Shown piece by piece: positions 9,167 through 61,806 of a DNA stretch of 64,000 bases. Position numbers and translations under genes: made by a program. This DNA is from Antedon mediterranea (lineage: Eukaryota; Animalia; Echinodermata), in NCBI RefSeq assembly GCF_964355755.1, contig NC_092670.1, forward strand, positions 9,538,201 through 9,602,200, given 5' to 3'. Under the pieces are notes generated by a model. That model was not told the origin of the DNA and searched no databases. It was given only the letters and a program-made list of their open reading frames with translations. Position 1 is the first letter of the stretch, and the number at the start of each line of letters is the position of its first letter.

Positions 9167-12100
9167 TACCTAGTAAAATAAATTTACTTTTAGTAATCAC
9201 AATTTATAAATGGAAAGAGAAATAAATTCTTTCAAGGAATGTGTTATTTAGAAATGAACTATGGACCATGTCCAATGCAATAATTGTGAAATGTTAAGTA
9301 GATGTTGATAGATGTGTATTTATGGTAAATAAATGTGGATGGATTAATGACATAAACAAACAGACCATAAACACATTGCACAAATTTCAAAGATTATGTC
9401 ATAATTGTATCCAACACCAACACAACATTTTTTGTTTTACTTTATCAAATACAGCTACAGTATATTACAAATTATAAATAGGCAAAGGTGGTTCTCAAGC
9501 TTAACTGAAAACTGAGGATATTCGGATTAGGCCCTCTACGGACCCACAGCAGCAGTGCAGCGCCTACCCTTGGTCTAGGAGTTGCATAGTAAAGAGAGAC
9601 AAACAAATATTAAATTATTTCTATTTGATAGATAAAGTAACATTTCAAGGTGTAATTTTTTTTGGCAAAATTATCTATCATTGATAGATAATTTTTTAGT
9701 CTATCATTGATAGATAATTTTTGCCAAAAAAATTAAATCAATAAAAAATAACTGACATAACTCTCTTTTTGCCAAAAATCTGTTTAAAGAAAATTAAATC
9801 AATGAAAAATAAAGCAAAAGTAAAAAAATATAAAACCAGTTTATAGAGTTTTTTAAGGGGAAAAAAACTATTAAAAACAATTACTATGTTCAAGGTTATA
9901 TTGTCAATTTTGACAGCAGAGCATTATAAAACCCCAAACTAGTGGGTGTAACTGGTGACCTATTTCTTATCTAGCGTACTTGATAACATGATCACCGTCC
10001 TAGTTTTCAACTACCTAATAGGGTACAGTTCACACTTTAATAGAAATGTATTCGTTCGAGTGACCGGAAAACTCTTTCAGAATCTGTTTGCTCTACAGTT
10101 TTGTTATTTTACTGCCGTTTCTTTTGTTCAAAAGTTTACACAACGTTTCATTGGTCAGCAAAGACCGTGAACCAATGGTCATGATCAACCAAGCAAATTT
10201 AATTTATATTTGTACCAGTGTTATCAATCAAATGCCACACAAATTAGCTCTTTCTCTCGTTGACGTCAAATTAAAATTCCGGATACTACGGATAAAAGCA
10301 GGAGTGCTCCCGGACAAATGAAATTATGACAACAGAAATTTCTTTTTATTGAAAAGGAACGTGAAATGGGCATTTGAAGTTATATATCCTTCAGAAATTA
10401 AAATTCATGACTTTGTATTTTTTCACCTTAAATTCAATGTCTTAAATTCAAATAAATGTCTGCATTTAATACAGCCTGTGCTCCTAAATTAGATTACCGT
10501 AAGTAATTCATTATTAAGGAATATTATATTTTAATAATTAATTATTTTTAAATATTTGTTTACATTAATAAACTACAGTACAGTAAATTCCTTTATTTGT
10601 TTAATCTATTAAATAAATAATAAAATTATGTACTTTTAATTAACCAAAAAATCATAATTTATTTAATCATAATTTAATTACAATAAAATATTTGATTGTT
10701 TTAATGACAAAATACTTACTATACCATAACAATCAACGGCATATACCATCTAGGTAATAAAAACTCACTTTATATGATTACAACATAGTATGATTGCAGA
10801 ACAATCACAGTGGTAGAAACAAAAGGTAGCAGGATAAGACCCCTCCTGGAGGCATGATTACAGTGAACTTGAAAAGCTATTGATGAAAAGGCACAATATT
10901 TGCCTACAATAAAATACACAATGTATCCCAACCTTGACTGAAGGTCATGTCCCAAATAAGGGATTATGACACAATAACAAATCTGGGTTAAGGTAAGGGT
11001 TGCTGCTTGATATGGTGTGTGGACTAAAACAGCCAGTAGGAAATAGGCATGGCATCATGATAAATAGGTGTCCACGTACTGATTGGGTGGTTGGCTGTGG
11101 TTACTAAGTAGGCTATGGCCCAGTTTGTGCACACGTTATGACAGGCTATAAGTTCGCTGAGATGTCAACCAGTCATCAGAAGGGTGTTAAGAAGGTTAGT
11201 GGAGAGTAGCCTAGGATCATCTGAGTGCTAAACACAACAGTTGCTCACAAGCAGTGTCATTATTCACTTAGACAGCTAAAGGTAGGGGTCGCCTTTACAT
11301 GCAAGAGCTCCATCACATTGGAAAGTGATTCAATTCCATTGGATTTTATATTTCATTTTGCTTTGTTGAATCAAATGTAAGTACTGTAAATTTCTTGACA
11401 ATACTAAACTAGTAAAAAATAAATATTTTTTTTTATAATATCAATATTTAATTTTTAAGTTTTCTACTACAGAACACAAATTATGTTGTTTGTTTATTTT
11501 AGTTTACAAACTGATAAAATTAAAATCTTTATTTTTTTAATTTTATTTATTTACTTTTTTTGCAACCACTGATTTTTAATATGAAGACATTTGGTGTACT
11601 AAAAAATAATATACCATGTTTTTAAAAAAAGTTTTTTAGATACATACAATTTCCCTGTCTCAATATATAGACCTTCTGTTGACCAAGAAAGGGTGATATT
11701 AATGGTTGTCACTTATCACTCATGGAAACTCTGGAAATTCTTACAGTTATCCCTACTTGAAGGAAATAAAAGATTATTTGAAATTTCCAATAACATATAC
11801 TATAACTTTTGTTTTATTTCCTGCATTTTTAAGCAGATTTCAGAGTTATTTCTAAAGTTTTTCACTCCTTTTAAAGTTCATGTATGAACAATATCAGAAA
11901 TGTTTTAAGGTATAAAACAACATTGCTAAGAGTAAGATTAATATTAATAACAGTAAGATATGGTTACATTTGTTTTAAAATTGGACACAATTGTAACCAA
12001 CCTGGAAAATTCCAATTCCATTTCTTGGCATGATTCTCAAATACCATTGCAGGGAACGAACACCTTAGTATGTATTGTGTTCATTTAAAATTATCTTTTT

Positions 12101-13964: not shown

Positions 13965-14320
13965 AAATATGTATGTTTAATAATTTTTATACCTAAATGG
14001 GGCACATCATATTTAAAACAACTAGATGGTTGAATTTAGTTCTATCTACAGTACAGTATCAGACACTTTATATTAACAATACTACATTAAATATGTCATG
14101 TAATTTTTATATCCAAATGGGCCTTTCGTATTCAAAACAACTAGATGGTTGAATTTAGTTGTTTTCGACCACTTCTTTTTAACTATACCTATAATTTATT
14201 ATACAACAGTAAATATGTCTGTAATTGTTATGCCTTAATAGGCCCTTTAAACTCAAAACAACTAGATGGTTGAATTTACTTAGTCTACAGTAGAGTACTG
14301 TATCTGTTTTAGACCACTTC
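13965..14320 (+). repeat. Degenerate about 120-bp triplication with an invariant 24-bp core
   Basis: AAAACAACTAGATGGTTGAATTTA at about 14015, 14134 and 14255. Confidence 0.9.
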
Positions 14321-15085: not shown

Positions 15086-16102
15086 TCTGCGTGAGGCTAA
15101 AACCACCCAGGTCAACGACACAAAATGCAATGACCACCTATACAATCATACTTACTATTTTTAATAATTCTTGTTATATTATAGAAACATTAAATCATGC
15201 TATATAAATATGTTATCATTAATACGCAATTATATTTTTATTACTAAGGTAATGTACAGTAACAACTTACTATATTTAAAATACTCTTCAAAAGTTATTA
15301 CCAAGTTTTTTAAAACGTTTTTTAGTGACGCTTATGAAAAAAAAGACAATGTTTTAAATTATTATTATAAAAAAAAATGTGTTTTTTAATGATTGTAAAA
15401 TAAAACTAAATAACTTTATTGTTTTAAATATTTTGAAAATTATCATTAAGGCCTATCAAACAAATTTATTGTGAAAAATAAAGATAACACTAACAGCAAG
15501 AATGAATTACAATTTATATTTATTATTAATGTTGAATTTCATTTTAATTATTAATTAATTGTATTAGTTTATATTAAATATTATAATAATTGTGTTACTA
15601 TAATTTAGTCTAAATTTGAATGACCACAGTACAGTAGTTTTATATAGCAAAAAACTTTTTAAAGTTTTTAAGCAATAGAGGGCAGCAGACATGTTTTATT
15701 ATGTTTACATCACTATTATACCTTGGAGGAAAAAATCCTATCCTATACTGGTACTGGTTCAAATAACCGTCTCACAGAGACATCTGGTAGCCATTTATTT
15801 ATACCTTGTATAAAAAGTAATATTATTATAATATGAACAAGCATACAACTATAATAATATTTATTTGTTTTGCAAATACTTTATTATTATTTTATTGGTC
15901 TATTCTATTTAATTAAACTTGACTACAGTATACGTAATTCAATAACTAAATTTTTTTTGAAATGCACCTTCTTCCAAAATACCACTTGATGCATGTAAAG
16001 AGCTTCGGAAAGATGCTATAAATACTAATGATTTTTAATGTATTTAAATTCTTTCAGATTAAATTTGAATACTGAAGATTGTTACTCCTGTCAACCAGCT
16101 GC

Positions 16103-16994
16103 ATGATGATTCTTGCAGCGTCAGTGTGTGGGTCTGCTCTGTGCGCAATGTACTATTTAAAAGAACAGTATGATTACAACATCCGGAGGTTACCGCCAGG
16201 ACCGTCGTCTTTCCCCATTATTGGTAACGCATTAAGTATTAGTATGAAGAATCCGCATTTAAGTATGATTGAACTCGCAAAACGATATGGAGACATTTTC
16301 AGTTTTAAATTGGGATCGAAACGGGTAGTTGTTCTGAACAGTGCAGATGTGATTAAAGAGGCATACAGTGGTATTGAGATCTGTAATAGGCCGCAGATTT
16401 ACTCGTTAGAATTTCTTGTAAATGGCAAGGGGTTCATGACGTGCACGGATCACAGACAATGGAAACTGCACATGATGCTATGCAAGAACGCCATGAGGGT
16501 TATTAACAACACAAGCCTCGGAAACAAAATCACAATGGAAACGACGTCATTGGTAAAACAATTTGCAAGTCGCAATTCAAAACCGTTCAACCCTAAAGAG
16601 GACTTGCATTTAGCATCCTTGAACATTCTATGCAATCTCGTGTTTGGAGAGCGGTATGAGCGTGGCGACCCAGAACTGACCGAAATCTTGGACTACTCTG
16701 CAGAAATTATGAAAGTTATCTCGCCGATACATCCGGTAAACACGTTGCCATGGTTGCGACATTTCCCCAACAAATGGTTTGATGCGCTTTTTAAAGCAAA
16801 AGATAAACGCGATAAGATTCTCATGAAGAAATACATTCAGCATTTCGCAACATTTGACGAGGAGAACATACGTGATATGTTAGATGCGCTTTTAAGCGCG
16901 ACCAAGGAAGCAACTCGGAACAAGGACAATGAATCTCTTAGCCTCCTGACACCAGAACACGTCATTATTAACATGTGGCTTATATTCTTTGCAG
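16103..16994 (+). CDS. P450 first coding exon (anchor to I-helix FFAG)
   Basis: ORF 16079..17053 in the track; donor GCAG|gtaaca at 16995; upstream acceptor ctttcag| at 16057 with branch-like tactaat at 16023. Confidence 0.95.
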
Positions 16995-19722
16995 GTAACA
17001 TCATTAAAATTATGTTTCTATTTGAATCTAATTTTTATTTAAGAATGAGATGAACTTTACTTTACTACGCTAATAATTAGCGTACATTGCTTATGTGTAA
17101 AAAAAACTTTAAACTTTAAAATAGCGTGTGTTGATCAATGGTTACTGTACAAAGGACACAATGACAAACAGACTTGTACTTAGATTGACAAAACAGACTT
17201 AGATTGTACTGGGTCACCCCCTATAAACAAGAAATACATTTTTCTAAGTTACCTACTGAAAATTTAATATCAATATACTGTATAACTATAACTAAATACC
17301 AAATGCGGCCTTAAAAATGCAAAACTAATGAGTACATGATTATATTCTATAGGAACAGACACAACTGCTAACACTCTGCTATGGGCATTGCTGTACATGG
17401 CAGCGTTTCCAAAGAAACAGGCTCTCATACACGATGAACTGGATAGGGTTGTTGGACCAAATGGACAACTGAACTTAGAACATAGGCCAGATATGCCATA
17501 CCTAGGTAAGAATATCTAAAAGTATTGAATTCAATCAATATTGACTTAAATCGACATCATTTTAAAAATTAATTAATTAGATGATAGACAATGATAATCT
17601 AAATGCCAATTTTTGGTGACAATGACAACCTGAATAACAATGTTTGGTGACATTACCAGATTAAAAAATAGTTCCCATAAAAGGCAGCATAACATCAATT
17701 GAAACTTTTTTACTTCATTCTTCAAGCATGATCTCTCTAAGGCATGACGTACAATATAAGAATCTTTGCATGATATAGTAATTAGTATTAGTACTGTAAT
17801 TATTTGCATGTACAATGGTTTATCAATGAAATATTGGGAATTCTTTAACATTTTTATACATGTGTAGTATACTGTATATTTGATTGTATGCTTAAAGACT
17901 TGGAAGTAATTAATGGAATGTATAACAGTAATCTAAACTGTGTTGTAGAGGGCCGGCATAGTCAATAATGACACTATCACAACACTAATGCCTATGTAGG
18001 CATGTGCAATCAATTCTGAATTACCTAATCAAAATATTTCTAATGAAAATAATACAATGTATGTTTTTGTCTATACTATACTAAGCATAGTTTGCATGAT
18101 GGCATGTCTTGTAAAATCTGACATTCTTTCTATCTGATCATTTATCTCCTTCAAAAACTTTGCAGAAGCAACCGTCTATGAGATTCTTCGCTACAGTTCT
18201 CTTACTATATTGGGAGTTCCACACGCCGCAGCAAGAGACACTAACGTTCGAGGATTTCACATACCGAAAGGTGGGGAATTATCATTACACCACTAACAAC
18301 CATTGTTTACTAATTTTGTTATCCTACAGAGGCAGCGATACTGGAATGTTTCAGATCAACTATTGAGTTTGGTCTGCCGCACGCAGCATCGATGAACACA
18401 GAATTAAGAGGTTTTAACATACCCAAAGGTAGCAAAGGGCAAGCAGATCTCTTCCAACAAATTTGTCTATAGATCTATATATTTGTCATTCTCTGTAAAT
18501 GTCTGTATAACCTACAGTAGATAGATTGCTTTACAATATGTTAATAAATTCTTGTCCCGAATTTGCATATTTAAATTTGCATATTGTAATTTGCATATCC
18601 TAATTTCATGTTTATTTGTTGTATTTTTTAAAATTATATGGGTTTCTAAATTTAGCATTAATTGTAAAATTCTTATTCTTAGAATATACTGTTATTAGAG
18701 CATGAAGTATGTTATCTTTTTATGTCGTCAATGACGTTCAGTTAAAAAGTCATCTCCTAGATTTCTTTTGTATAAAACCAGTTTCTGTTTGTTACTGAAA
18801 TAAACATTTTACAGTCAATATTTAACTTATTTAACAATTTCTCCAACAGTAGAATACTAGATTAGAAATATTATGCATGAATGTTATTATAAGTCTGCAG
18901 TAGGTCTATTGTTCTATTATACAGTAATATTCTTGGTGTTAATATGTCATTTGAACTCTTAGTATGTCCTTAGTATGTAAATTCTAACTAATGCAGGCCT
19001 GCTAATGTACTGAACTAAATATTGTGTATGATTTTTAAATCCTAAATTCATACTTTAAAATTAAAAACAAAATTTACCAATTATTAGTAAAAATTATTAT
19101 AAAAATAGCCCCATAAAAAATTAAAATTACATTCTAATAGTTACAGTATAAAACAAAACCTGATTTAATATATAACTTTTTACATTTAATTTGATGTTTA
19201 ACATTCAATTATATAATATAAAAAATATCATCTACTGTAAAATATACTAAAGTTTATCTTACTGTATGGCAATATTACATTTTTTCAAATTACTTATTTA
19301 TATTTGAATATGTATTATGAATTCCAGGACCACACGCTAAATGCTAAATTGCTAATTTAATAATATATTGTCTTATTTTAGGAACACAAGTCCTGGCAAA
19401 CATTTGGGCTGTTCACCACGACGAGGAAGCTTGGGACAGGCCTCATGAATTCCTACCAGAACGATTCTTAAACAGCGAAGGAAAGATGAAAAAGCCGTCG
19501 GAATTCCCTCACTTTATGCCGTTTTCAACCGGTAGACGTATTTGTATTGGAAAGAACATCGCAAAGTGCGAGTTATTCTTGTTGATTGGAAACTTACTGC
19601 AAGAGTACACGTTCAGAATGCCAGACAATGTGGAGCCGGATTTGGAAGGAGAAGTAACATTTTCGTTAGTGCCAAAACCATATGAAATAGTGGCTGAACC
19701 GCGTATAAAACCAGAGCCATAA
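16103..19722 (+). CDS. Cytochrome P450, clan 2 (CYP1/CYP2/CYP17-like); join(16103..16994,17353..17505,[18166..18270 OR 18330..18428],19382..19722), 496 or 494 aa
   Basis: Hydrophobic N-terminal anchor, Pro hinge LPPGP, I-helix FFAGTDTT across intron 1, K-helix ExxR, PERF, heme motif FSTGRRICIG. All introns GT-AG and phase 1. In-frame TGA at 16073 makes ATG 16103 the start. Confidence 0.95.
17353..17505 (+). CDS. P450 coding exon 2 (GTDTTANTLLWALLYMAAFP...DMPYL)
   Basis: ttctatag| acceptor and |gtaag donor; I/J helix sequence continues the frame. Confidence 0.95.
18166..18270 (+). CDS. P450 coding exon 3a (EATVYEILRYSSLTILGVPHAAARDTNVRGFHIPKG)
   Basis: ctttgcag| acceptor, |gtgggg donor, 105 nt, phase 1-1, ExxR motif. 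Confidence 0.92.
18330..18428 (+). CDS. P450 coding exon 3b, paralogous alternative exon (EAAILECFRSTIEFGLPHAASMNTELRGFNIPKG)
   Basis: atcctacag| acceptor, |gtagca donor, 99 nt, phase 1-1, open frame, ExxR, PH and GFxIPKG motifs. Confidence 0.8.
19382..19722 (+). CDS. P450 last coding exon (GTQVLANIWAVHHD...PERF...FSTGRRICIG...stop)
   Basis: cttattttag| acceptor; heme-binding Cys motif; TAA at 19720; AATAAA at 19893. Confidence 0.95.
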
Positions 19723-21299: not shown

Positions 21300-21590
21300 A
21301 ATGGGAATGGATGAAGGGTGGAAGGGGATATAATGGGTGGGAAGAGTCTGAGATAGAAGGGATAGAGGGTGGGAGGGAGAGGGAGTGGCAGGGGATAGAG
21401 GGTGGGAGTATATAGAGGGTGGGAAGAGATACAAACAAGAAATAGAGGATGGCAGGGGATAGAGGGTGGGAGTATATAGAGGGTGGGAAGAGATACAAAC
21501 AAGGGATAGAGCATGGCAGGGGATAGTGGGAAGAGAAAAATTGGGTAGGAGGAGATAGAATAAGATGTAGGAGCAGGGAGAAGGAGGCCA
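21300..21590. repeat. Polypurine, G-rich degenerate tandem repeat (GGGATAGAGGGTGGGA)
   Basis: Directly visible; explains spurious ORFs 21265 and 21293. Confidence 0.9.
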
Positions 21591-23248
21591 TACTTATACT
21601 ATAGTATTCACAGTACAGTATGTACTTAAAAACAGGACTCTAAGAACAGGTGGGAGGTTATCCAAGATAAGGTTAATAATGATTGTCCCTTTTAAACTTT
21701 GAGACAATATTTATTATCTTCATTGTGAATGATTAATGCCAGATAAAAATAAATTATATATATATTTGATTTTATTACTGAAAACTTCAAAACATTCCAA
21801 TTTCTGTTTATAAGTAGAATAAGGCAGTATTTTAAAACTATTTAGTAATTAATAAATCTGTAAAATAAGAATAAGATACCTATATAATGGTTTTGGAAAA
21901 TTAATTTTACATTTGTATTCATTTTAAAATAGGTCATTGCTACCAATAAAATAATGAAACATAATTTGATATCAAGTGTTTGTTTATGATGGGTTTTAAA
22001 TTACTGTTTAAATAACAGTGGTTTATTCTTGTACAAAATTTGAAAGGTGTAATTATTTCTATAAAAAAAATAATAATACTACACAGAGAAAAACATATAT
22101 TATTAAATTTTGTATTATCTATTGTGTAAAAAGAATGTTTATTCAGATTAATTATAAATCAATTTTGTGAAAGTATTAATTAGTATTATTATTGCATTGT
22201 AAATACAATTTATTATAATAATTATTTCCCATTTTTATCTTAAAATATAATATAATCATGTATAGTTTTTAAAATTCTGGGCATATAATGTACAGTAAGG
22301 CAACAGTTTTAAAAAGAAATCAATATTAATAAGAATTTTTTTTTTATCAAGTCTTGATAAAGAAAGTTGTCTGAGAGCCAGATAAACTTAAGATCTTCTG
22401 GTCATTTTAGTAGGCCTATCAATGGTAATGTAATAATATAAATTTCATTATTATCTATCTACAGTATGTCTTTGTATAAATTCTATATTCTGTACTGTAT
22501 ATATACAAACCATTCATTTTGAATATACTGTACATTATAAATTGCCCAATTTAAAAAAAGATAAAAAACTTTCCTGATAGTAAACAACAATATAAAACAA
22601 AAAATATCACCTTTATCAAACCAAAAGAATTTGAAAAAAAAGAATTTTTTGGAGAATTTATTTTTTTTATTTTATTGAAGTGTATTTATACATAATAAAA
22701 GAAAAAGATAGAATGAAAACTTATGTATTATTATTTTATTAATTGTTGATAGGATACCAAGTGTGTGAGACATATTTGTTTATGTCAAGATAGTCAGGAA
22801 AGTGGGATAAAACTAACTGTAAATAATGCAATTTATTTTTGGCGGCCATGTTGAAAAAGTGAACACTTTGGCACAGACCATTAAGTAATAGGGGTGTTTC
22901 AGAAGGTGAAAAGCAAGGCTTGCTGGGATAATTAAACAATGCAAGTTATTACTGTACCTCTAATAAAAGACCACTTACAAGTAAAGACAATAGCAAAGTG
23001 GATTTTAAATGTTTTTACACCCGGAAATAAACATTTCAGAACAATAGAGAGTATAATATTTGGTATTAAACAAATTACCAATATTCATTGTAAGTAGTAA
23101 AAAAATTGATTAATGCAAGCCAGACATGCATGTTAAACTTAACTATTCTAATAGGGAAATATTGTACCTACTGTATTTGGTATACTGTAAAACAAACTGT
23201 ACGAGGTATAATAAAGGGAAAATAATTTTTAAAAATTAAAACAATTAC

Positions 23249-32475: not shown

Positions 32476-35400
32476 CTACAATGTAGATAAATCAACACAT
32501 TTAAAATAAACAACAAATTAATTTCAAAACGCACAACATACTGCAGGTTTTAATCATTATCAATATTAGAGAGTTTTAATTTAAGTGGAGGTGCCGTCCG
32601 TCCGTCCGTAAATAGGTGGCAAATTCTAGCAGTATAATGGGAGACTTTATAAAATCATGGCTGTTGTATATCTTCTTACTATAAACTGTAACTGTATATA
32701 AAGATGCTAACACGTTAAATTATTCCATCTAATAGCAACTAAATTCAACATGAGGTTAACAGTATAACACTTGTATGGACTCTGTGTATCTGTTATTGCT
32801 GTCCTCAATATACTACAATGGCCAAACCTAGTGTTTAAAAAAGTCTTGGAAAACAAAATGTGTGCCAGGGTCTTTCTAAGCGTGGCATATCTCGATGTAA
32901 CATAACAATTACAATATGATGATCACCTGATCTGCTGGTTGTGATTAATCAACTCATTTGAGTTGTGGTTATGCATTGTTGTGTTGCATCCAAGTGGGTT
33001 TATTAAGGTGGAAAATGTGTTTTCTAATTTTGTTAAATAATAAATATTGGTATAATTACCTGACTAAATGTTCAAAGAATAACTTCATTGTAGCATAATT
33101 GCAAGGAGGCAGCCTTCTTACTAACTCGCGTATATTTCTGATACGAGATTTTCGGTCTGGCGCTTCTAAAAAAAAAAAAGAATATACAATTTTATTTTTA
33201 AAAATTCAGCAAAGCAGAGCAACTTTATTCAAAATTACATTTTTAGTTTTTATGGTAATTTTTTTCATTAATAATAATAGTGTATTTATTAAAATCATTT
33301 TCATAGAAAAAAACACAAACACAATAGATTTTTATATAAAAAAATTACTACAATGTACACAATGATTTACTTATGACATGTCATTAAGGAGGAGGGTAAT
33401 ATTTAAATTTTTTTTTATAATTAGAAATATCATACACAACAAGTTCCTCATTTAAATACACAAGTTTCCGAGTTAATCCATGACCTAAATTGGTATATTT
33501 TATTCTTTTGCCTTTTAGAGTTTAAAACTAATTTACTTTACGTTTTATTTATATCTCCTGCCCCAGTACCGTTTTGATTACGATCATGGAGGAAATTACC
33601 TCACGACTATTTAATCAACTGTAGTAGATTTGCACTAGACAGTTTTACAGGAAAAAAGAGAAGACTTACTGAGTGCAGTAATGAAACTGTTGTACATCTG
33701 ACATGGAATTAATGGATCTGGAAGTTCACGAAAGAACAACTTTAACGCACCAGAAATCACATGTATATCATCGAAAGGAGGATTATCCATGTTAACTTCG
33801 TGTTCTAAATTAAAATATGAAGAAAAAAAAATCAATAGCAGTAGAATCTTCTCTTTATTTTAAATAAATAATGCTAAATTGTGTACAAGTGGACAAGCCA
33901 AGACAACAATTTTCTTATCTACTCATGTGGGTCTTGTGATTTTTCATCAGTTGTTGAAAAAAACTGTGTCAATCAAGGAAGCAAATCACAAATTTACATT
34001 CCAAGATTTGTTCCACCACAAGAACTCTGGACAAGAACAGCCTTGAATGACAGGGCCGTAGCCATCAGTACAGTTGGTAAGGTTCCAACCTGACCACTTT
34101 TTCACAGAGGCATTTGACAATCCAGTGACTTGAACAGAGATCTTCCCTTGCGAAAATCAGACTACTTAATTTCTTGTGTCTAACATCATTGAATGGTGAT
34201 GTCTTAATAACCACTCAGGCACTTGACTTAAGACATTATATATCAATTAAAATTGCCTCTTACCATAATCAATCTCACATCGTAGTTTTTGTACCAATGA
34301 TAAGTTAGCGGACAATCTGTATATCCCTACGACGTTTAAACCTTTCCTGTCGATAGTTGAGATACACGCTTCAACAAACTTTGGAATTGTTGTGCCTTCT
34401 TTCTCGCATAATTTATCAAGTCTCTTACCAAAAACATTCTCCTCTGTTGGGAAAAAATACAAGATTATGTTGATGATAGTCAGGAGTAGAACTACTTCTA
34501 CATATCTATATTTAACAACACTATAGTATACAAATAATGAATGTTTATTAGTGTAATGGTACAAATAATGGCATGAGGTAAATGATGAAATTTTATACAC
34601 TATATCAACGAGGCAAAGCCGAGTTGATATTTAACCGTTCATCATTCACCAAATGCCATTTTTTTTACCATAACACGAACAAAAAAAACCATCATCATAA
34701 CATTCAAATAGCGGCGAAAGTACAAAATAGGTGGCACTGTTGTATTTCAAAAGCAATAGTATAAACGCGAAAGATTTTTTTCCCTACACGAAAAAAAGTA
34801 CTATTGAACGATCGTTTAAACGATCGTTTAATAGTGCATACTATTGCACACCATCAATCAAATGACAGGAATTTATTTAGGTGTTATACAATATATGTTA
34901 CCATTTCCCCAATTTAAAAATACTTGAACCGCCCCTGATAGTGTACACAAATATGTATGCTCTTTATTCAAGTAGGCACGAAGAAAATATACCAATAACA
35001 AGGACTTTGCTAGAATAATAATTACCACATATTTACCTTTAAGAATCCCTTTTTTCTCTAATTCAGTCTTAGTCGGCCTCCTTAAAATACTGAAATATAA
35101 TCTATTTTTAATTTTCTTCTTGTCAGTGGCTATAAAAAATAATACAAACATTATAAACCTTGATTAAAAATACTGTTTAATTGTCACTAACCTCTTGTGT
35201 ACATTGATCAGGTAAATCTATAATCAGGGCACCCTGGTAAAACTCACTCACAGTCTTAGCATCCAATATGCACCATCAAATACTGACAATCTTGGCATGG
35301 CACCCTCGATGACAACTGTCCCATGTCCTGTGTCAGGCTTAAACTCACAGGTTAGGTAAAACATGCAGAACTGGCAGTTATAATGGCTACCCAACCATGA

Positions 35401-59400: not shown

Positions 59401-60082
59401 CTTTCCCTACTGTCGGAACCTGTCACACAGGTAATTATAAAATGATGCCAATTGTCTTCTGGGTGAATGCTATGTATGTGTAGTATGGATAGACAGGTTC
59501 CAGACCTGAGACTGAGTTATCATATTGTATAAGCTCCACTAATTGGTTTGTTGACTTTGGATAAACATAAAAACGATTGCTTACCGTTTTATTCCCGTTA
59601 ACAGGTGAATGAGGTGAGTGCGGTGAACGATCAGTATGCGATGATTCATCCCCTACTGAAGTGCTTCGTTTAAAGTTCATGTACTGAGGTTCGTTCTCCA
59701 CTTTTAAATTGTCAAATACAGGAATTACGTTATCATCATGATCATAGTTATTTCCCTGATTATAGTTACTTCTGTGATTAAAACTCCCTTGATTAAAACG
59801 TGTGTGATTCAAGCTATTTCCATGATTACGCGCATGCATGGGCACTTGATTCCCGAATGATGAAATTCGCTTTGCAATCTTGTCGCCATTACTGTTCGCC
59901 ACTTCCTCCAAGTACGTTGCGGGAAGGTAGACTCCGGATGTGTCGCCCTTTTGTTGTACAAACCACCAATCATCATTGGACTTCTTTATCAGAACAAATT
60001 GATCACCAGGTTGCATTTTCCTGGGTTCTCCATCGCTGGACTTGTATTCATACTCGTATTTGGCCTTCACGTAGTCCACCAT
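32304..60082 (-). CDS. ARHGAP12: Rho GTPase-activating protein, ARHGAP9/12/15/27 family (SH3-WW-PH-RPEL-RhoGAP), 15 coding exons, about 752 aa
   Basis: The exons listed below join in frame through GT-AG introns (2259 nt including stop). Domain order, the overlapped WW segment, the RPEL motif and the arginine finger GIYRLS match this family. Confidence 0.9.
33060..33165 (-). CDS. ARHGAP12: RhoGAP domain exon 3 (LPPCNYATMKLFFEHL)
   Basis: polyT ag| acceptor and |gtaatt donor; 106 nt, phase 1 to 2. Confidence 0.95.
33670..33804 (-). CDS. ARHGAP12: RhoGAP domain exon 2 (DIHVISGALKLFFRELPDPL)
   Basis: LKxFFRELPxPL motif; 135 nt. Confidence 0.95.
34059..34160 (+). repeat. Interspersed repeat; other copy at about 60517-60620
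   Basis: TAGCCATCAGTAC-GTTGGTAAGGTT-CAACCTGACCACTTTTTCACA shared. Confidence 0.85.
34264..34443 (-). CDS. ARHGAP12: RhoGAP domain exon 1 (VFGKRL...IPKFVEACI...GIYRLSAN)
   Basis: Arginine-finger motif; 180 nt, phase 1-1. Confidence 0.95.
35037..35129 (-). CDS. ARHGAP12: RhoGAP RPEL exon (KKKIKNRLYFSILRRPTKTELEKKGILK)
   Basis: RPxxxEL motif; tttatag| acceptor and |gtaaat donor; 93 nt, phase 1-1. Confidence 0.92.
35538..35619 (-). CDS. ARHGAP12: RhoGAP linker exon (SPPGHTIFDEEPSED...ESRK)
   Basis: tttccag| acceptor and |gtaagt donor; 82 nt, phase 0 to 1. Confidence 0.85.
36161..36220. repeat. 16-bp tandem repeat x3.5 (GGTATCTAGGTCAGGT)
   Basis: Directly visible. Confidence 0.9.
36294..36392 (-). 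CDS. ARHGAP12: RhoGAP PH exon 3 (LTSNTGSEVILYSEKSQETDGWHETIKRKISKL)
   Basis: PH C-terminal helix Trp; gttttag| acceptor and |gtgagt donor; 99 nt. Confidence 0.9.
36868..36975 (-). CDS. ARHGAP12: RhoGAP PH exon 2 (GKSGSLGRPESSIALVEATL...KNAFY)
   Basis: tttttacag| acceptor and |gtaagt donor; 108 nt. Confidence 0.9.
37129..37493 (+). mobile_element. Apparently full-length tRNA-derived SINE
   Basis: A box TGGCCGAGCGG near 37144, B box GGTTCGAGGCC near 37210, central GGATAAGGACTATAAACCGTAGG...TAAAGAACCC...AAGAGTAGGG domain, (AAAT)n tail. Confidence 0.8.
37903..38103 (-). CDS. ARHGAP12: RhoGAP PH exon 1 (VEKSGYMFCLRMKD...VYVVLTHSSIVIYKD)
   Basis: PH N-terminal strands; gacag| acceptor and |gtaacg donor; 201 nt. 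Confidence 0.9.
40139..40330 (-). CDS. Candidate alternative first coding exon of the RhoGAP (MEMNGARDD...EEDDEEDEEDD...DDLL)
   Basis: Acidic, protein-like 64-codon ORF ending at TTG|gtatgt in phase 0, compatible with exon 38103. Confidence 0.6.
42303..42488 (-). CDS. ARHGAP12: RhoGAP Ser/Arg-rich linker exon (LSSRRLSENLDD...YAVK)
   Basis: ttttttcaag| acceptor and |gtaaga donor; 186 nt, open, phase 0-0. Confidence 0.85.
42921..43859. mobile_element. Tc1/mariner-type MITE carrying an expanded 14-bp minisatellite
   Basis: TA|CAGTAGAA...TTCTACTG|TA terminal inverted repeats with TA duplication. Confidence 0.8.
42938..43760. repeat. Minisatellite, 14-bp unit GGG(G/T)ACACCATTAA, about 58 copies
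   Basis: Directly visible tandem array. Confidence 0.98.
45788..46120. repeat. Degenerate 17-bp tandem array (GGGYTTCTTTTYAAGAT), probably within a MITE
   Basis: Directly visible; explains overlapping spurious ORFs 45853-46161. Confidence 0.85.
47024..47113 (-). CDS. ARHGAP12: RhoGAP WW exon 2 (WRMSKDDTGKAYFYSENRDTSQWELP)
   Basis: W...YFY...WxxP signature; cttttag| acceptor and |gtaaat donor; 90 nt. Confidence 0.9.
47690..47810 (+). mobile_element. 3' tail of a CR1/L2-type LINE
   Basis: GAGGGCCTC...CACCCTCATTAAA...AATAAAAAA, same layout as the 6119 tail. Confidence 0.45.
48045..48146 (-). CDS. ARHGAP12: RhoGAP WW exon 1 (LLPLGWQKVKDDLGVWYYTHENTTER)
   Basis: LPxGW WW signature; ttttatag| acceptor and |gttagt donor; 102 nt. 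Confidence 0.9.
49000..49072 (-). mobile_element. tRNA-derived SINE head or pseudogene (His-GTG-like anticodon arm)
   Basis: AGTGGTCTAAG A box, TCTGC-ATGTGAA-GCAGA stem-loop, degenerate GTTTGAATC B box. Confidence 0.55.
49835..49955. mobile_element. MITE with AGCTCTGTCTACA termini (PIF/Harbinger-like); second copy at about 44560-44697
   Basis: TAA|GCTCTGTCTACAC...TGTAGACAGGGC|TTTA; shared ATATGGACA-GATGAT-TCATATCA-TACCATATTTGGGCA core. Confidence 0.6.
51992..52093 (-). CDS. ARHGAP12: RhoGAP Arg-rich linker exon (ARINRHAASRRPQRGREYY...RYLE), possibly a cassette
   Basis: tcttcag| acceptor, |gtagaa donor, 102 nt, phase 0-0, open, CpG-rich relative to flanks. Confidence 0.65.
53208..53505. repeat. 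Degenerate about 28-30 bp tandem array (CATAAACAGGTTATTTAAACCAGTATTCA), about 10 copies
   Basis: Directly visible. Confidence 0.9.
53627..53731 (-). CDS. ARHGAP12: RhoGAP linker exon (RFAPKFPADSL...SVPPV)
   Basis: Long polyT tract then ag| acceptor, |gtatgt donor, 105 nt, phase 0-0, open. Confidence 0.8.
56204..56548. promoter_or_regulatory. Intronic nuclear-receptor elements (DR1 and DR5)
   Basis: TGACCCtTGACCT at 56204-56216; AGGTCAagacaAGGTCA at 56532-56548. Confidence 0.4.
57878..57982 (+). repeat. Dispersed duplication of about 100 bp; other copy at 63901-64000
   Basis: GATGACGTACTATCTAGAATCTTAAACCACAACAGCTGATC... identical core. Confidence 0.95.
59585..60082 (-). CDS. ARHGAP12: RhoGAP exon: start plus SH3 domain (MVDYVKAKYEYEY...DDWWFVQ...YLPATYLEE)
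   Basis: SH3 signature; donor ACG|gtaagc, phase 0. Confidence 0.93.
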
Positions 60083-61806
60083 ATTTGCCCGTATTCCACT
60101 GGGTATTCTATTTATAACACTAGGAGTACGCTTTTATGTCATTATTTCACTCAAATACAAAAATCTATTTTTTAAACTATTATTCAACAACTACTGTAAC
60201 AATTGATAGCAAAATCAAACCAAAAAAGAATCAGTATTGTCCAGGGAAATCATTTTCTCAACCTGAAATGAAACAAAAGAAATCAATTTTTAAATATCAG
60301 ATTACTGTACACAAATCAACAGTGGTGTTTGTAGCCCGCAAGTGCGGCTTACCTGGTAAAACCAACAACAGCCCATGCTCTCTCATGGGAGAGCACTGTA
60401 CTGTATGATACAAAAATATAAAGTTCATTGAGCCCCCCTCTGCAACAATGGACTATTGCACCAACCACAACAAAATTACTTTTTAGGTACAGAACACACA
60501 GAAAATTAGTCAAAAATAGCCATCAGTACGGTTGGTAAGGTTTCAACCTGACCACTTTTTCACATGCCTTTGACAACCCAGTGGTTTGAACAGAGAATTT
60601 GTTCCCTTTTTTGCGACAACCACACCACTTCTTGTGGCGATATCGCTGTTGTTGGATAAAAAAAAAAAGAAATTTTCAAGCTCTACCTTAATAATACTCT
60701 ATATTTTAATTATTTCCTTGTGCAGTTTGAATACAAATTATTCAAAATTACAAGTTCATGATAATGTAAACATCACATAAACAATAAACAAACTGATTCG
60801 GTGTTTAATTTATGTAAAATACAATTGAGAAAGTCTATTGAGACAAACTGAATGAAACATGTATTAAAGCCAATAGCCTACAGGTATTATTATTAACTTG
60901 TACCTGGAAAATTGTTGTTTTCCCAGGTACGTATTAAAGATTAGTATTTCAACTCATTTACTATACATAAATTACTGTGCTTACAATACAGTACCATTGT
61001 GACGTGGAATGTTTTCATTTAAAAACTGCAGAATGTTTAATATTAAATAAAGTTACAAAATGTTTATTGACTCCTACTGTAAGGGGTCTGTTTCTGCTGA
61101 AAATAAAAAAAACAAAACATTTTATAAGAAAGCGGTTTTATAACAACGACCATGTTGCGGCTTATTTTTTCCTCAAAATATTGTTTTATCAGTTGTCTGG
61201 TTGGTTGTGTAATGACATCATTATTATCCATAGAAAGTAGTCAAATGTTTGCACCAGTCAATGACCTTCTATAATTAGGTCAAATTGAGACCACAATTTA
61301 AACAAACAAGCTAACAATTGCTCAACAGAAAATGTTTTTTCAAACTTTTTTTTACTAATTTTATGCTATGTGGTACATATCTTACCCTGTCATATAAAAA
61401 ATGTATGTAATGGGTGACATCAGTCTACTAATAGTTGTAACCGCAAAAAGAAGTCCAGTGTGTACAGTACAACCAACCAAAACCCAAAGTATACATGATT
61501 CAAATCACACAAAGGACTTCATATAATAACAATTGTTGTTTATTATATGAACTAAACAACCCATGTATAGTCATCTATTGTGTTTGTGAACATTCAAATG
61601 AGGAAATAGGAAATTATAATACTCCCCTTGCTGTACCCTTCTCTAGCATATTTTGGGGCCAAAAGCGCAAGTGTACAGGTCTGAATTTGCAGTGTCTACA
61701 GTAGTTCATCACACACAAAAATGAAAATGAGTACAGTACATCATTCATAGAGATATTACACTATAATATCTCTATGGTTAAATCATGAGTGTGAAAACAC
61801 CCTTAA

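Follow-up and report, generated by a model that had tools for sequence, protein, structure and literature searches.

The closest described parallel is human CYP4F3, a cytochrome P450 gene in which mutually exclusive exons switch the substrate from LTB4 to arachidonic acid (CYP4F3A/B; PMC7434440, PMC4494069). It had been cited as a precedent in a different region of the protein in a first-pass annotation of the crinoid locus studied here, and this holds, since the exclusive exons of CYP4F3 lie near the start of the P450 domain and switch the substrate (PMC7434440). The locus, in Antedon mediterranea, resembles it in being a P450 gene with internal homologous exons, of which one or the other is apparently spliced. 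CYP4F3 belongs to clan 4 and its function is proven, whereas the Antedon gene belongs to clan 2, its exon pair (3a and 3b) encodes the K-helix and substrate recognition site 5 (SRS5), the exchange changes the length of the site itself, and its function is putative.

Two further systems share part of this arrangement. In coq-2, the exclusive internal exons 6a and 6e remodel the enzyme core, the ancestral form being universal and the derived one present in certain lineages, similar to 3a and 3b; coq-2, however, encodes a prenyltransferase, and its switch was shown experimentally and linked to oxygen (PMC7434440). Substrate switches in an enzyme core made by a single splice choice are called rare by the same authors (PMC7434440). 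In CYP6ER1 of the brown planthopper, deletion in SRS5 alters what the P450 handles while the ancestral form is kept, but the route was whole-gene duplication with one residue deleted and no splicing switch; in flies made transgenic for such single-residue deletions, imidacloprid resistance rose 4.5- to 20-fold (PMC5788746). An exon switch at SRS5 or the K-helix of a P450 was not found in the literature searched, which agrees with the first-pass annotation, to whose author none was known; subscription papers may hold a case. The main text of PMC7954323 contains no mention of CYP, P450 or cytochrome, and its supplements may list P450 cases.

The reading we consider probable is that a crinoid P450 carries a tandem SRS5 exon, retained in two families and likely spliced exclusively, which would yield a major ancestral 496-aa enzyme and a probably minor 494-aa one with altered substrate choice. 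A more specific version is offered tentatively: a steroid-type P450 in crinoids may swap its SRS5 exon by tissue or stage, the derived form being active, its loop short by two residues against every other segment examined here, and making a crinoid-specific product. If true, this would be the second P450 whose substrate is switched by a single splice choice, here at another site and with the length altered beside the heme. As the two proteins differ only within a stretch of 33-35 residues, they would amount to a natural controlled experiment on the role of SRS5. The isoform sequences already exist as RefSeq models; what is new is their meaning and conservation.

Gene structure and family placement

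The window analysed is a stretch of 64,000 nucleotides (contig NC_092670.1). Gene features were placed with the help of contigs from run X1, which was taken as RNA and whose contigs cross four introns.

11347..11376, + strand: 3' end of a non-coding 5' UTR exon, the loose end of a contig spliced to 16058; donor GT at 11377
16058..16994, + strand: first coding exon, starting its reading frame with the ATG at 16103 and encoding the membrane anchor through to the I-helix; run X1 contains the joint 16994>17353
17353..17505, + strand: second coding exon, from the I-helix Thr through the J' helix
18166..18270, + strand, 105 nt: exon 3a, K-helix/SRS5 of the ancestral type; joints 17505>18166 and 18270>19382; ExxR-to-Pro-His spacer of 9 residues
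18271..18329, + strand, 59 nt: intron between 3a and 3b; its sole AG is the acceptor; candidate branch adenines at 18296, 18309 and 18313
18330..18428, + strand, 99 nt: exon 3b, K-helix/SRS5 of the derived type; present in RefSeq X2 of Antedon and Anneissia and assessed by constraint tests; spacer of 7 residues
19382..19722, + strand: last coding exon, to the stop, with PERF and the heme-binding Cys; the 3' UTR extends beyond

The coding gene thus comprises 16103-16994, 17353-17505, either 3a or 3b, and 19382-19722, giving 496 or 494 aa. Both exons of the pair are open, flanked by AG/GT and of phase 1-1, confirming the two neighbouring homologous exons first described from the letters of the sequence. 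The predicted isoforms of 496 and 494 aa were likewise borne out, being identical to database proteins P0001 (isoform X1) and P0014 (isoform X2). In register, 3b matches 3a at 16/33 residues, and a tblastn search of the window with isoform A matched 3b at E 3e-6; the likeness of the exons, taken with their presence in a second species, is beyond chance by these alignments. Joining 3a to 3b would give 529 aa and skipping both 461 aa, each in frame and joined without a stop.

Several other features were noted in the window. The long 5' UTR intron contains about three diverged copies of a ~125-nt unit at 14000-14290, as judged by eye, and the intron 3' of 3b contains a 14-nt unit in three copies at 18560-18606. 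A repeated purine-rich stretch lies at 21300-21600, near the expected end of the 3' UTR contig. The minus strand carries a multi-exon gene at 26000-60200, in which Pfam identifies SH3 (exon at 59438-60133) and RhoGAP (exon at 34250-34630); it looks like the ARHGAP9/12/15/27 type. No other P450 was found in the 64-kb window.

Exon 1 is a 100% match to an Antedon mediterranea protein labelled steroid 17-alpha-hydroxylase-like, isoform X1. Both isoforms contain a full-length p450 domain (Pfam PF00067; 377 bits for isoform A and 358 bits for isoform B, against a cut-off of 22.8) and carry the I-helix acid-Thr pair, ExxR, PERF and the heme Cys motif. Among solved structures, the best match by sequence and fold is zebrafish CYP17A1 (CYP17A1/A2, PDB 6b82 and 4r20; E 4e-85, TM 0.81), yet the vertebrate CYP17A1/A2 enzymes are only about one third identical to the Antedon protein. 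In a tree of 28 sequences, few of them CYP1, the gene and its paralogue fall within an echinoderm-hemichordate clade (support 100/100), whose sister group consists of two CYP17A1 and three unnamed sequences with a support of only 93/90 and a long-branch warning. The gene is, on these comparisons, a clan-2 P450, and "CYP17-like" by resemblance, a label and not an enzyme activity. Orthologues at 58-67% identity occur in sea stars, urchins, sea cucumbers and acorn worms, and the source name of Anneissia X2 is 'cytochrome P450 1A5-like'. The exon pair also opens up an echinoderm-hemichordate P450 family whose members carry, in the records used here, automatic names alone.

The paralogue (~50%; P0011, P0018, P0046) is present in crinoids and sea stars and absent from the 64-kb window. 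It is fused with this gene in a Patiria model and has a neighbouring accession in Acanthaster, so it is probably tandem in those genomes.

Substrate recognition site 5 in the two isoforms

The stretch following ExxR is SRS5, which lies beside the heme. Of 67 proteins, 42 yielded K-helix segments to a pattern search, 45 segments in total; the other proteins were fragments, one non-P450 and five full P450s that the pattern missed. The spacer between ExxR and Pro-His/Arg/Phe is 9 residues in 43 of the 45 segments, and 7 in both 3b forms. By alignment, the two residues deleted from 3b belong to the linker that directly follows helix K. When anchored on Pro-His, 3b aligns without gaps to CYP2B4, with the Glu of 3b opposite a Pro of CYP2B4 and CYP1A; the acidic residue may therefore not face the substrate. 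Of the two differences first described in SRS5, a deletion and an acidic residue, the deletion is the larger change.

AlphaFold models (15 rows) keep the fold, and the SRS5 loop is below pLDDT 50 in both isoforms. The modelling of both isoforms that had been proposed is therefore not decisive. The deletion and the new residues past helix K would reshape the pocket by the heme, leaving helix K, Pro-His and the following strands intact.

Scored against the family profile, the two 3b copies reach 52 and 56 bits, below all 28 family segments (minimum 63), and an Asp found in 28/28 of these segments is lost from both. Such features would also be expected if 3b were spliced and selected but its product were a weak or inactive P450, acting as an off-switch that lowers activity or in a non-catalytic role, which we regard as unlikely. 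None of the 43 other segments has a spacer as short as 7 residues, and heme binding by the 3b form could be impaired; the loss of the invariant Asp, the profile score under the whole family and the faster change of 3b are further points in favour of this reading. However, a dead in-frame product is already obtainable by skipping both exons, the retained ExxR, Pro-His and downstream strand motif fit a folded enzyme better, and the 3b isoform still scores 358 bits against Pfam p450.

Conservation of the exon pair and selection on 3b

The protein cluster has four members, isoforms X1 and X2 of Antedon (Antedonidae) and X1 and X2 of Anneissia japonica (Comatulidae). The Anneissia proteins are 496 aa (X1) and 494 aa (X2) long, and in the X2 of both species 3b replaces 3a. 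Each crinoid X1 is represented by at least four accessions and each X2 by one. Between the two species, identity is 35/35 for 3a, 26/33 for 3b and 441/461 for the remaining protein. The 3b of both crinoids has the same 2-residue deletion and the same five-residue SRS5 core before Pro-His. An intact 3b is thus recorded in a relative, Anneissia, with frame, length and motif kept at the protein level. From this we infer that 3a was duplicated to give 3b before Antedon and Anneissia separated; a date for the split of the two families was not found in the accessible text of PMC13079724, PMC6409975 and PMC9793003. In the preferred reading, the new SRS5 exon would then have shed two codons and diverged while selection maintained the P450 scaffold.

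Outside crinoids, a 3a-type segment is present in all 17 listed orthologue proteins spanning this part, which represent 13 species. A 3b-type isoform was absent from these 17 annotated proteins, a list that does not contain Apostichopus isoform X2; 3b was likewise absent from new orthologues among the 34 matches of a profile search and from the 2 candidates of a region search. By this distribution, 3a is the ancestral and 3b the derived type, and the exons are not equals.

Several candidates were set aside. The 32-residue 3b query against 1.84 billion representatives gave two matches, of which one is an unremarkable P450 fusion and the other a repeat protein matched by chance. A metagenome scan gave three P450 loci, all distant (25-30%). 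The 528-aa protein of Apostichopus and the 531-aa protein of Holothuria were rejected as double-exon forms, as their N-termini are longer instead.

Selection on 3b was assessed over the 27 residues alignable with 3a (5 to 7 unalignable residues were dropped), with invariance judged on 11 family members. Exon 3b keeps 12/14 family-invariant columns and only 3/13 variable ones (Fisher p 0.002), and four-fold third positions differ between 3a and 3b at 7/10 sites, near saturation. The retention of invariant columns at such divergence indicates that 3b has been under purifying selection. Simulated neutral drift of a 3a copy equalled the 3b pattern with p 0.0005, 0.006, 0.04 and 0.18 at 12, 10, 8 and 6 differences, 12 being the number observed and 6 half of them, laid on the 3b side. 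Among the seven differences between the two 3b copies, five are residues present in the family column, and a neutral path of 7, 4 or 3 changes reached the profile score of Anneissia 3b with p 0.002, 0.012 and 0.02. A test of whether the 3b differences avoid conserved columns gave p 0.02 or 0.12, depending on gap placement. SNPs were uninformative, with 18 in 2030 nt of intron and 0 in 3b, where 0.9 were expected (p ~0.4). The earlier suggestion that both exons are under selection is thus supported at the protein level, for 3b by the invariant-column, drift and profile-score tests.

Exon 3b evolves at about five times the rate of the remaining protein (7/33 versus 20/461 residues, p 0.001). This rate would suit a slowly decaying copy, once useful or never so, that is now spliced as noise, with the X2 models reflecting rare reads or homology transfer. 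Its weak donor, the lack of a 3b junction in the contigs (not proof of absence) and the lack of a 3b-type isoform among the listed orthologues outside crinoids (17 proteins, 13 species) are also consistent with decay. Against this stand the frame, length and motif of 3b, kept in two families: drift as the source of the 3b likeness has p 0.24 at a neutral distance of at most 0.15, but p is at most 0.003 at 0.3 or more. The crinoid pair differs at 4.0% of residues in the orthologue and 9.8% in the paralogue (5.4% for Strongylocentrotus/Lytechinus), and these protein distances suggest a neutral distance beyond what drift needs. We therefore consider decay quite improbable.

It appears very improbable that 3b was acquired, through exon capture or conversion, from a different clan-2 gene of the CYP1/CYP2-like kind. 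Compared on its own with solved structures, 3b matches CYP1A1, 1A2 and 2B4 best (E 0.02-0.16), and the 1A5-like source name of Anneissia X2 might be read similarly, but these matches are weak and come from a structure library without a member of this family. The boundaries and phases of 3b equal those of 3a, and, of 29 segments scored against 3b, the top 8 all belong to this gene family.

Splicing and the probable basis of exclusion

Contigs of run X1 contain the joints of exon 1 to 2, 2 to 3a and 3a to 4, all GT..AG. At 3b there were 0/3 joints in one contig set and 0/2 in another, and one X1 contig is unspliced through 3b (18242-18649). No 3b junction was present in the contigs of 5/5 runs, X1 being the sole run with any joints; since contigs drop rare variants and a single run was spliced, the missing junction was not taken as absence. 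No 3a>3b joint was present in the spliced contigs of run X1, and the 529-aa form is found in 0/4 cluster members. Of the junctions predicted at the outset, 17505>18166 and 18270>19382 were thus seen and 18270>18330 was, as expected, not seen, but 17505>18330 and 18428>19382 were missing from the contigs of this one run.

RefSeq isoforms such as X2 generally require transcript support. Inclusion of 3b in mRNA is predicted by the two automated RefSeq X2 models, the later of which may have borrowed from the earlier. For mutually exclusive splicing as first proposed, splicing of 3a alone (18270>19382) and the geometry of the intron are favourable, but 3b alone is known from the RefSeq models only.

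The motif CACTAAC starts at 18291 and TACTAAT at 18308, with branch adenines 26 and 43 nt from the 3a donor; three branch-A candidates were predicted in all, at 26, 39 and 43 nt. The 3b acceptor has a full branch motif and an AG-free zone. The 3a and 3b donors are weak, with 5/9 matches to the U1 consensus, compared with 7/9 for the two upstream donors. In a human survey, a donor-branch distance below 50 nt was classed as steric interference and accounted for 9% of clusters (PMC5740500), and a branch point requires at least 8 nt ahead of the AG (PMC5378181). The first-pass claim of a short donor-to-branch distance was sustained by the 26-43 nt measured to predicted branch points, although the <50-nt criterion is human and the crinoid limit may differ; minimum intron size varies by clade, from ~76 nt in vertebrates to ~50 nt in C. 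elegans (PMC9438311).

Because the 529- and 461-aa products are both in frame, nonsense-mediated decay cannot enforce exclusivity. RNA structure around the exons does not stand out (z -0.1) and gives no hairpin signal. The 15 direct and 56 inverted AT-rich repeats look like chance. Exclusion is probably enforced by the donor-to-branch distance of less than 50 nt, the 59-nt intron probably being too short from donor to branch for 3a to be joined to 3b. In the proposed mechanism, two acceptors and two weak donors would compete, with 3a usually winning as the default, and 3b would be the minor choice, perhaps limited by tissue, leading to a 494-aa P450 with a different pocket.

It is hardly plausible that 3b is instead a non-exclusive cassette following 3a, so that the K-helix segment would be present twice in a 529-aa protein: although 3a and 3b join in frame and stop-free and some invertebrates splice 59-nt introns (the optimum in C. 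elegans is ~50 nt; PMC9438311), the cluster has no 529-aa form, the X1 contigs join 3a directly to exon 4, and 3b replaces 3a in both RefSeq X2 models.

At position 18276, +6 of the 3a donor, run X5 carries a G>A change, which could shift the choice between 3a and 3b between individuals.
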